From a virus, in the IMG/VR virus record IMGVR_UViG_3300027985_000286, positions 85,349 to 149,348 of that record: 64,000 bases of DNA. One strand, given 5' to 3'. A model generated the notes under the pieces. The model had not been told where the DNA came from and did not search any database. It saw nothing but the letters and a program-made list of their open reading frames with translations. Below, in pieces: positions 45,748-47,814 of this stretch. Within the stretch, counting starts at the first letter, position 1. Every line of letters starts with the position of its first letter. The position numbers were made by a program, and so were the translations under genes.

Positions 45748-45831
45748 GGTGTGTGGCAGAGCGGTCGAATGCGGCGGGCTGTAAACCCGTTTCCTCTGGA
45801 CTCGGTGGTTCAAATCCATCCGCACCCACCA
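45747..45831 (+). tRNA. tRNA-Tyr(GTA)
   Basis: GCGGG-CTGTAAA-CCCGT; long variable arm; ACCA. Confidence 0.95.
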
Positions 45832-45849
45832 TATTGAGGAGTTGACTAA

Positions 45850-46221
45850 ATGTCTGTTGTTGAAGAGTTGACAGAATACCAGTATCAGTCTGCTCTGGTG
45901 CCCGAAAGCCTTCGGTTAGTTATGCAGGCATTAGGGCACGAAAACGATAGTGTTGAGATTGTTAGCATTACAGACGACACTTGCAGAATTCGAGTTTTGT
46001 GGACTGCGAGGAGCTGTCAGCAAGGTTGTGAGTATGTCTTGCCTTTGTCTGTACTCTGCGCAAGCAATGTTATCAAGGCTACACTAACTTGGGATGAAGA
46101 ACAGAGATGTACGGAGGCAGAGTTTCTTATTCTAAGGTTGCAGAATCAGCTCACTGCCGCTAAAGACAGGCTGAAGCAGTTCAAATGCAGACTGGAAGAG
46201 TTAAAGAAAATGCCCGATTGA
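45850..46221 (+). CDS. Hypothetical protein
   Basis: GAGGAG RBS. Confidence 0.65.
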   Translation: MSVVEELTEYQYQSALVPESLRLVMQALGHENDSVEIVSITDDTCRIRVLWTARSCQQGCEYVLPLSVLCASNVIKATLTWDEEQRCTEAEFLILRLQNQLTAAKDRLKQFKCRLEELKKMPD

Positions 46222-46317
46222 TGGTGATTTTATGAAGGTTGAGATCACAAAGAGCGAAGCCATTCGTGTGGCAGCCCCTTAGTTCTAAGTATGGAGAAGA
46301 ATGTGAGCAGGAACATC

Positions 46318-46346
46318 TTGCATTTTTCGTGGAAGTAGCTTAGAAT
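46318..46346 (+). promoter_or_regulatory. Sigma70-like promoter upstream of the ncRNA/tRNA-Pro block
   Basis: TTGCAT-N17-TAGAAT. Confidence 0.65.
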
Positions 46347-46369
46347 ACTGCTTATAGAACAAGTTATAC

Positions 46370-46473
46370 GTGCCGAAAGGCTAGGGCTGGTATCCCGAAT
46401 TCGAACCAATACCAGGGTGGAGTAAGAGCTGTCTGACAGGTTGAAGCGCTGCCCGCGTGGACTTGACAGCTCA
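46370..46473 (+). ncRNA. Putative structured RNA upstream of tRNA-Pro
   Basis: GCC-GAAA-GGC, CTGGTAT/ATACCAG and GAGCTGTC/GACAGCTC stems. Confidence 0.5.
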
Positions 46474-46477
46474 CATT

Positions 46478-46554
46478 CTCGGTATAGCGCAGTCTGGTAG
46501 CGCCCCTGCTTTGGGAGCAGGTTGTCGGGGGTTCAAATCCCTCTACCGAGACCA
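46478..46554 (+). tRNA. tRNA-Pro(TGG)
   Basis: CCTGC-TTTGGGA-GCAGG; ACCA. Confidence 0.95.
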
Positions 46555-46687
46555 AATAAAATTGGACCGGTTTCTTGAAACCGTTGTGCTATAGGTGATT
46601 TACCTAGTCCGAGTGTCATGAATGGTTGCACACCTTTTGTGAGTTTGCTGACATTGGCGCGTCAGCAACACTAGAAGCCAGAGTTTT

Positions 46688-47091
46688 TGTTGGTGATGGG
46701 AGGTTGGCTTAGAAGCAGCCATCCTTTAAAGAGTAGGACTAAGGCTGGTACCAAGAACACTTAGGTTGGCGATGCGGCAGGCAACCGCTCTTGAGTCAAC
46801 TGAAAGCCCGATAGCCTGTGGTAATTAATTCGGCTTTGCATACCGTAAAAGCCACAGGGTCAGAGAAAGGAAAGTAAACGGAGCATGGGAACAGGTGACA
46901 CGTTGAAACGTACTGCAGATACCGCACCGACTCTGACCATAGCACCAAGGCATTCAACGCTAGGATGCCGAAGGAATGGGGTAGCTCCCCTGGGGGTGAT
47001 TGGGCCAGGTGCCACTTACGAAGTAACCAGGCACCCCGGAAACGGTAAGGCTGAGGTTTCCTTTTGGCGTAACAGCACACCATCATCAACA
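46688..47091 (+). ncRNA. ~404-nt ncRNA containing a split mimic of the 23S rRNA GTPase-associated centre (H43-H44)
   Basis: 12-bp closing stem; GGAGGTTGGCTTAGAAGCAGCCATCCTTTAAAGAGT (46699-46734) and GCGTAACAGCACAC (47067-47080) match 23S ~1055-1104; 332-nt structured insert between them. Confidence 0.85.
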
Positions 47092-47311
47092 TTCTATTTG
47101 AGGGTTAGATGAAATGAGTTTACCGACCAGAGCAGTGTTCTACAAGGATGGGTGCGAGATTGCTCATGCTTTTACCAACGTTGGATGGGTGATGGATGAA
47201 CAGAACATTCCTTCTTGCGTGAAAAGATCCGCAAGCAATGTAGGTCTCGTAAGAGACGACTGGGACACTGTGAAGCTTTACGGTAAAGAGTACACTGTAG
47301 GACAGATTTAT

Positions 47312-47402
<91 letters not shown>

Positions 47403-47605
47403 TTTTAGAACTCTTGACAGGCAGATAGAACAGAAATGTTGAACCCGACCATCAAAGGAATCACTATGAACGAGATAGATAATATCAGAGCAAGCGAAGT
47501 AGAGATTCCTGAAGAAAAGAAAAGCTTCTGGCAGGAGTACAAGAGGAAGAAGCTGGTCAAGAAAGTCAAGAGACAGATTAAGAGATACAAGAGAAACGGT
47601 TACAA

Positions 47606-47690
47606 GTAGTGGTAAGCAAGCGGCCAAAGCAGCTGGGCCTTCAACCCAGTCCTTTACGGTTCACGGGTTCGAATCCCGTCCACTACGCCA
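47606..47690 (+). tRNA. Atypical class II tRNA with loop CCTTCAA (reads as Glu TTC with C33, or shifted TCA)
   Basis: GTAGTGG/CCACTAC acceptor, G73, CCA; GCTGGG-CCTTCAA-CCCAGT; long variable arm. Confidence 0.8.
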
Positions 47691-47694
47691 ATTT

Positions 47695-47814
47695 CTAGAT
47701 GGATTGGTCTACAAACTGACTGGACCGGCAGTAAACCGGGAGTGATAGGAGCAATGTTCCACGGAACACCTTGAGCGTGCCTTGCTCGGGCTAGAGATGG
47801 AACCAGCCATCAGA
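47695..47814 (+). ncRNA. Putative ~120-nt structured RNA between tRNAs
   Basis: Closing stem GATGG.TTGGT/ACCAGCCATC with three internal hairpins. Confidence 0.6.

Follow-up and report, generated by a model that had tools for sequence, protein, structure and literature searches.

A family of phage RNAs that probably imitates the uL11-binding GTPase-associated centre of 23S rRNA away from the ribosome

In the GTPase-associated centre of 23S rRNA (Escherichia coli positions 1051-1108), L11 and thiostrepton contact helix 43 (H43), and L10 needs almost all of helix 42 (H42) with its conserved core (PMC1635324). Imitation of rRNA by RNAs that bind a ribosomal protein off the ribosome is described for the ribosomal protein leaders (the L10 leader RF00557 and those of L1, S8, S15 and L20), which are cis-regulatory 5' untranslated regions of cellular operons and usually resemble rRNA loosely. 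The GOLLD and ROOL RNAs are phage-borne, structured and free of open reading frames (ORFs), and lie in or beside tRNA arrays. Phages are known to carry tRNAs, transfer-messenger RNAs (tmRNAs) and a few ribosomal proteins. Here we describe a 404-nt non-coding RNA gene located amid the tRNA genes of a T4-like phage, at positions 46688-47091 (+) of a 64,000-nt stretch of IMG/VR record IMGVR_UViG_3300027985_000286 (positions 85,349 to 149,348 of that record; the whole stretch is hereafter called the window), which, judging from its sequence and that of its relatives, probably imitates the uL11-binding site of the ribosome off the ribosome.

The element shares with the 23S centre its secondary structure, its unpaired nucleotides and its covarying pairs, including 1082:1086. 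Unlike that centre it stands alone in a phage tRNA array, has an arm with a 4-nt linker at 1090/1091, displays states of its own at 1089, 1090 and 1101, and belongs to a family that is relaxed at loop positions 1067, 1068 and 1070; H43 is kept, and in the place of H42 there is a generic helix whose sequence varies and which lacks the conserved core. Like the ribosomal protein leaders it would bind a ribosomal protein through rRNA mimicry, its binding being predicted, but it is phage-encoded, is a near base-for-base copy, has no ribosomal protein gene downstream and matches no leader in Rfam. It is much smaller than GOLLD and ROOL and built on an rRNA domain, whereas no likeness to rRNA is reported for those families in the literature examined. 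Pseudo-ToxI (PMC3475682) and phage tRNAs are likewise phage RNAs that imitate a host or defence RNA and share the co-location with tRNAs; what the element copies, unlike pseudo-ToxI, is a domain of rRNA, and it has no known cognate defence system. No such RNA was encountered in Rfam 15, in full-text literature searches, in two large motif catalogues or in the GOLLD/ROOL structure paper, and a stand-alone copy of a functional rRNA domain has apparently not been described before in the literature searched.

Two parts of the element correspond to 23S positions 1055-1090 (46699-46734) and 1091-1104 (47067-47080), that is H43, helix 44 (H44) and the top of H42 (Table 1); the register was set with 46699 as G1055, 46734 as 1090, 47067 as G1091 and 47080 as C1104. 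The reference for E. coli was an annotated 23S gene (L245), a 2898-nt copy, and the second reference was a genuine rRNA piece inside the record of Paenibacillus phage Pd_22F (L005; MZ092003.1 82477-85512), where a long, unannotated and contiguous 23S rRNA represents either carried host DNA or an assembly artefact. Identity to E. coli amounts to 32/36 over 1055-1090 and 12/14 over 1091-1104, the differences being the 1058/1080 and 1090/1101 pairs plus 1089 and 1097. A preliminary description of the locus, made by a model from the letters alone, had placed both strings correctly, and the E. coli sequence that it gave is present letter for letter in the annotated gene, against which the differences at 1058/1080 and 1090/1101 are indeed compensatory, as it had claimed. 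The loop adenines it reported as kept, 46711 and 47071, lie 28 rRNA positions apart and correspond to gene positions 1063 and 1091 of the E. coli copy, which we take to be the canonical A1067 and A1095. The closing helix of 12 bp and the five internal helices that it listed are likewise complementary exactly as given.

The element has the secondary structure of H43 and H44 and the unpaired nucleotides that are conserved in the uL11-binding domain. The covariance model of bacterial large-subunit (LSU) rRNA, RF02541, aligns window positions ~46697-46753 to the H42-H44 region with 28 bits (E = 6e-8 for the 149-kb genome) and also matches the element in three relatives. The match is local, spanning model positions 1094-1147 only and lying below the gathering cut-off of 50 bits, and the element is not part of a full-length 23S rRNA gene; no rRNA gene was detected in the 149-kb virus record, where the element occurs as a single copy. 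Screening the region with Rfam 15, at gathering thresholds and at E <= 10, matched tRNAs alone, and neither GOLLD, ROOL nor any other family matched the element.

The preliminary description had proposed a search of phage databases for both halves at variable spacing, and such searches yielded a large phage RNA family that is apparently undescribed. By means of blastn both halves were recovered from cultured phages, in the same order and on the same strand with differing spacing: the carriers are Pseudomonas phages Astolliot, pf16, UNO-G1W1 and Milchi, Aeromonas phage 4_4572 and Xanthomonas phage XacN1, all with the element in an unannotated gap, mostly adjoining tRNA genes. Megablast with another part of the window identified no close relative among cultured phages. 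Searching IMG/VR for exact copies of a 19-mer taken from H43 resulted in 63 contigs, and a second scan anchored on the 3' junction alone in at least 120 matches, mostly on new contigs. Upon removal of identical copies at least 127 viral elements were obtained, 111 of which are collinear enough for per-position counts. When the 3'-junction pattern was applied to one genome per prokaryotic species, 69 matches were found, 68 of them scorable, and 39 had the 5' half where expected; the remaining matches are attributed to chance, since about 70 chance matches are expected for the pattern. The 39 assemblies are labelled Bacillota, Bacteroidota, Pseudomonadota, Chloroflexota, Actinomycetota, Nitrospirota, Bdellovibrionota, Planctomycetota and candidate-phyla bacteria, and elements in bacterial assemblies often lie next to tRNA and tmRNA arrays. 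The window element displays the family features, namely ordered halves on one strand, a closing helix, an insert helix with UUUR linker, and a location in a tRNA array.

Family members were extracted by fixed register. Since the bases of the search pattern are fixed in whatever a scan finds, conservation of H43 and H44 was taken from separate sets: H43 from 67 members found via the 3' junction and H44 from 44 members found via H43. The collinearity filter in addition fixes 1077 and constrains 1087-1090.

Comparison of these relatives indicates that the rRNA-like fold is under selection across the family. At every Watson-Crick pair of the rRNA domain 95-100% of the 111 collinear relatives have a standard combination, and the changes are compensatory. 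Pair 1058:1080 is standard in 111/111 and occurs as six pair types (G-C, U-A, A-U, C-G and both wobbles), 1057:1081 is A-U in 102 and C-G in 9, 1064:1074 is C-G in 106 and A-U in 4, and 1062:1076 is also maintained by compensatory changes. The tertiary-type pair of the connecting turn, 1082:1086, is U-A in 75, C-G in 24 and A-U in 10 relatives. The non-standard juxtapositions U1060/U1078 and G1093/A1098 are retained and not repaired. In the closing helix up to six standard pair types are found per position, with 82-100% standard pairs and changes on both sides in 9/9 pairs counted. An alignment of 21 elements with a class I insert (alignment A1) was analysed separately. Unguided, RNAalifold recovered the closing helix, H43 and H44 from these 21 elements, and the rRNA structure imposed on the alignment gave 96.3% paired cells, versus 78% in shuffles and 38-50% with slid partners. 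Both sides had changed in 20/31 pairs, and the covariation score was 0.546 versus 0.187, with 0/500 shuffles reaching 0.546.

Invariant or nearly so in the unbiased sets are G1059, U1060, G1071, C1072, A1084, A1085, G1091, G1093, U1094, A1095 and A1098, nucleotides that presumably build the tertiary core of the solved uL11-rRNA structures; A1088 looks invariant too, at a position that is constrained by the collinearity filter. G1093, U1094, A1095 and A1098 are fully invariant in the 44 elements found without reference to the 3' half, where 1092:1099 covaries. Positions 1096 and 1097 vary freely in the family, the window element itself having the complete rRNA loop, and G1089, U1090 and A1101 are family-specific states. 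On comparative grounds the conservation pattern is one of selection for the uL11-binding fold. The earlier proposal of a selected ribosome-mimic RNA rather than rRNA debris agrees with this, as family-wide covariation keeps the rRNA fold, including the tertiary-type pair.

The interruption between 1090 and 1091 occurs in nearly all members, with a length that runs from 0 (L048) and 29 nt up to 369 nt and a median of 136. The inserts open and close with a short helix, whose first three positions hold standard pairs in 110/110, 109/110 and 102/110 elements, drawn from five to six pair types; sliding the partner lowers pairing to ~55-62%, and in alignment A1 both sides changed in 4/4 pairs. In 43 elements found without reference to the linker it reads UUUG in 33 and UUUA in 6. 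Beyond these shared ends the inserts are unrelated: clustering put 35 of them into one class, grouped others into several small classes and left 57 as singletons. The constancy of the rRNA-like part, as opposed to these unrelated and in L048 absent inserts, supports selection on the constant part. The L048 element (L048:1599-1650), a contiguous domain without insert located between tRNA-Glu and tRNA-Met on a 190-kb viral contig, represents the minimal natural form. A second expansion site was observed after A1077, at the base of H43, where L164, L074, L095, L103, L122, L123, L141, L147, L161 and L166 have an extra hairpin or arm, either beside the 1090/1091 arm or in its place.

The 3' ~45 nt of the window insert place it in the class of 35 and are shared with 34 others; for its other ~280 nt L162 is the only detectable relative. 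The class I module contains columns that are invariant or nearly invariant in the 21 class I elements, among them an invariant UAAGG, and both its helix and its hairpin (47036-47045) were predicted by RNAalifold and are kept by compensatory changes. The hairpin has a GAAA loop in the window, and its loop varies across class I, unlike the rRNA loop. With respect to the internal helices of the preliminary description, 46949-55/46963-69 is backed by one change in L162, whereas 47008-13/47030-35 does not stand, since it is not conserved in this nearest relative and competes with the class-conserved pairing. The 8-bp pseudoknot 46866-73/47057-64 suggested there is complementary, but competes with the insert-closing helix 46735-38/47059-62 for its 3' bases. 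Judged from the relatives, the 332-nt interruption is a lineage-variable structured expansion arm and not an intron.

The element of the window (46688-47091) lacks a copy of the sarcin-ricin loop, searched for as a bulged-G motif flanking a GAGA-type tetraloop with complementary flanks. A sarcin-ricin-loop-like hairpin is present in 2/161 inserts, those of L017 (3711-4023) and L100 (7762-8075), which have inserts of ~313 nt that form another class; the hairpin is 11/14 identical to the sarcin-ricin core and has complementary flanks, and these two members thus bring together the two RNA halves from which the GTPase-binding site of the ribosome is made. A loose version of the motif is not enriched in the family, as 16/300 shuffles reach the family count.

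Table 1. Coordinates of the element, its parts and the flanking tRNA genes in the window; positions with four digits from 1055 to 1104 are those of E. coli 23S rRNA.
Feature	Position	Strand	Remarks
Closing helix, 5' strand	46688..46699	+	Replaces top of H42; 12/12 pairs with 47080-47091
rRNA-like 5' half, 1055-1090	46699..46734	+	H43 and loop (A1067 = 46711), 1082-1086 turn, 5' strand of H44 base
Structured expansion arm, 332 nt, class I insert between 1090 and 1091	46735..47066	+	Site common to nearly all relatives
Insert-closing helix, 5' strand	46735..46738	+	Pairs with 47059-47062
Two hairpins, 46949-55/46963-69 and 46978-81/46987-90	46949..46990	+	One compensatory change each in L162; weak, two sequences
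Class I module	47021..47058	+	Purine-rich joiner, 3-bp helix 47030-32/47050-52, hairpin 47036-47045, UAAGG; limits approximate
Insert-closing helix, 3' strand	47059..47062	+	Pairs with 46735-46738
4-nt linker UUUG before G1091	47063..47066	+	Conserved in family
rRNA-like 3' half, 1091-1104	47067..47080	+	H44 hairpin (A1095 = 47071) and 3' strand
Closing helix, 3' strand	47080..47091	+	47080 = C1104
Flanking tRNA-Pro	46478..46554	+	ARAGORN, Rfam
Flanking tRNA-Ser	47312..47401	+	ARAGORN, Rfam

The phage of the window is a T4-like myovirus, as indicated by tail sheath, portal, UvsW-type helicase, topoisomerase II, RIIA, an Alt-like ADP-ribosyltransferase and NAMPT. The element lies among tRNA genes, as had been noticed before, 15 of which are found in the window, all on the + strand. 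Within 4 kb of the 127 viral elements 601 tRNA genes are on the same strand and 0 on the opposite strand; a tRNA gene lies at most 30 nt upstream in 30 elements and at most 30 nt downstream in 30. Given this context, co-transcription with the tRNAs and release by tRNA processing is the simplest inference. The sigma70-like promoter that had been placed at 46318 was not recovered, a consensus scan giving 0 sites in 45800-47700. No protein family recurs beside the elements in more than 6/127 loci. Five carrier genomes contain no uL11 or bL12 gene, a single sub-threshold L12-like stretch in Astolliot scoring 16 bits versus a cut-off of 25.9 bits, which points to a host-encoded partner. A cis-regulatory leader for the ORF at 47114 was considered and rejected as a general explanation, since the relatives are mostly flanked by tRNAs and have no downstream gene in common; neither does a ribosomal protein gene lie near the element, which is thus not situated in the 5' untranslated region of the gene of a bound ribosomal protein.

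For the function of the element we lean towards an off-ribosome decoy of the GTPase-associated centre, most likely loaded with host uL11. Paired with each other, the two ends of the element rebuild the 58-nt uL11-binding centre, with the arm leaving the domain between 1090 and 1091. The RNA would be transcribed together with the tRNAs and then cut out by tRNA processing. Folded like the ribosomal domain, it would bind host uL11, or another recogniser of the domain, away from the ribosome, and the resulting decoy would offer the surface of the GTPase-associated centre to a factor that otherwise acts on ribosomes. Candidates for the captured factor would be a toxin directed at the centre, a defence effector or a ribosome-bound signalling factor. 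Phages are known to deploy tRNAs against RNA-directed defences. Tre23 ADP-ribosylates H44 at nucleotides 1095-1098 and impairs the GTPase of EF-G (PMC8661411), and according to the title of reference 28 in PMC11229360 the ribosomal stalk captures the CRISPR effector Cami1. A decoy is favoured because Tre23 targets the very site, Cami1 uses the neighbouring stalk and the gene lies among tRNAs. The roles suggested in the preliminary description, titration of uL11, translation GTPases or RelA and a decoy for effectors that target rRNA, are plausible candidates.

Several points weigh against such a decoy. Sequestration of uL11 could harm the phage's own translation and, since ribosomal proteins are abundant, a decoy would need high expression. 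We know of no defence system that targets this rRNA domain in phage infection, Tre23 being an interbacterial toxin. The H43 loop is relaxed in members found without reference to H43, where A1067 is A in 79%, G1068 is conserved in 70% and A1070 in 81%, and hence a partner that reads these bases cannot be universal. The minimum free energy (MFE) of the whole element is not unusual (z = -1.41), and without tertiary terms the rRNA-like fold is less stable than the unconstrained MFE structure by ~6 kcal/mol; the structural evidence is therefore comparative, not thermodynamic.

More tentatively, the family may represent a first class of virus RNA that rebuilds a ribosome centre off the ribosome, serving as a uL11-loaded counter-defence or takeover decoy whose lineage-specific arms, the sarcin-ricin-loop copies of some relatives among them, tune which factor is caught. 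As part of this same tentative picture such a decoy might catch an rRNA ADP-ribosyltransferase-like toxin, a stalk-dependent effector or RelA.

The decoy has as its main rival a uL11 sponge, which would soak up newly made host uL11, depriving ribosomes or RelA of it, and so blunt the stringent response or alter ribosome composition, with no attacker diverted. We consider this unlikely, yet the sequence does not separate it from a decoy. In its favour, it is the complete uL11-binding domain that is conserved and not the part of H42 that uL10 needs, and the carrier genomes examined contain no phage uL11 gene. Furthermore, activation of RelA requires uL11, as known from the relC phenotype, and enzymes with a presumed (p)ppGpp-lowering activity are encoded by some phages. 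A cost to the phage would be that ribosomes without uL11 translate poorly.

It is improbable that the rRNA-like domain is a folding scaffold or a processing handle for a variable insert that holds the function, in the manner of a tRNA scaffold with cargo. Such a role would fit the structured nature of the inserts, the conservation within some classes, such as that of the class I module, and the sarcin-ricin-like hairpin in two relatives. It is, however, the rRNA-like domain that is constant, whereas the inserts are unrelated (the 57 singletons), and in L048 the insert is absent, elsewhere it can be as short as 29 nt; moreover, the near-invariant non-helical rRNA nucleotides exceed what a scaffold needs.

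Slightly more improbable still is a free-standing imitation of the factor site that engages the translational GTPases EF-G, EF-Tu, IF2 or RF3 directly. The domain does belong to the GTPase-binding site, to which L017 and L100 add their sarcin-ricin-loop-like hairpin, but the element of the window has no sarcin-ricin core, only two of the 161 inserts have one, and the loose motif does not rise above shuffles. The loop of the class I hairpin varies, unlike the invariant rRNA loop, and the factor-facing A1067 varies in 21% of members, which argues against GTPases as the general target.

Highly implausible is the excisable intron of the preliminary description, in which two rRNA-like exons would be split by a self-splicing intron whose removal yields a ~72-nt mini-domain. 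The window insert does follow a U and end in G, and 53 nt into it 6 consecutive nucleotides could pair with the final bases of the exon. No Rfam intron model or other family matched this insert at E <= 10, nor any of seven other inserts of 313-369 nt, although the scan of the latter did pick up the true group I intron that interrupts a tRNA gene of L151. Inserts of 29-66 nt are too short for self-splicing, sizes ranging from 0 to 369 nt overall, and 7/43 unbiased inserts end in A and not in the G required of group I introns. The insert ends consist of a covarying helix and a conserved linker, as in an expansion arm. Debris of rRNA, a recent host capture or an assembly chimera can be dismissed as already refuted by the comparative data, for in spite of the high 23S identity and the genuine rRNA pieces in some phage records (L005; hits H10-H13) the same split architecture recurs in at least 127 distinct elements of viruses and in 39 genome contigs that span many phyla, with shared family-specific states G1089, U1090 and A1101 and a covariation that is incompatible with decay, and the window genome has one copy and no rRNA operon.

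The decoy, if real, would point to an unrecognised class of host factors or defences whose target is the GTPase-associated centre or, alternatively, to a new phage control of the stringent response or of ribosome composition. The family is experimentally accessible through the cultured phages that carry the element, and for RNA structural biology it forms a natural set of the domain with tolerated insertions and substitutions.

A few observations concern the surroundings of the elements. In the window an ORF of 78 aa (47114-47350, +) with a GAGGG ribosome-binding site begins 22 nt past the element and overlaps tRNA-Ser at 47312; it matches the first 58/128 profile positions of PHROG 12830, labelled major head protein (E = 2e-12), and possibly represents a conserved phage gene that is short or has been truncated. 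The regions 46360-46477 and 46555-46687 (+), on either side of tRNA-Pro, are poor in ORFs and have strong hairpins, including a stem-loop at ~46389-46413 whose minus-strand loop resembles a tRNA T-loop and an 8-bp hairpin at ~46645-46669; ARAGORN and Rfam call nothing there. The group I intron of L151 (2941-3164; RF00028, 70 bits) is situated within a tRNA gene of the phage array, ~5 kb from the L151 element. In L037 (512-644) a sub-threshold match to YrlA, a Y RNA-like RNA (42.9 versus 69 bits), lies directly upstream of a tRNA in an array that also holds a member of the family. Suppressor-type tRNAs and tmRNAs are frequent in the arrays of carrier contigs, the tRNAs with anticodon CUA (L041, L062, L068 and L181) or UUA (L240) and the tmRNAs in L181 and L213, which hints at stop-codon reassignment or a wider manipulation of translation in these carriers.

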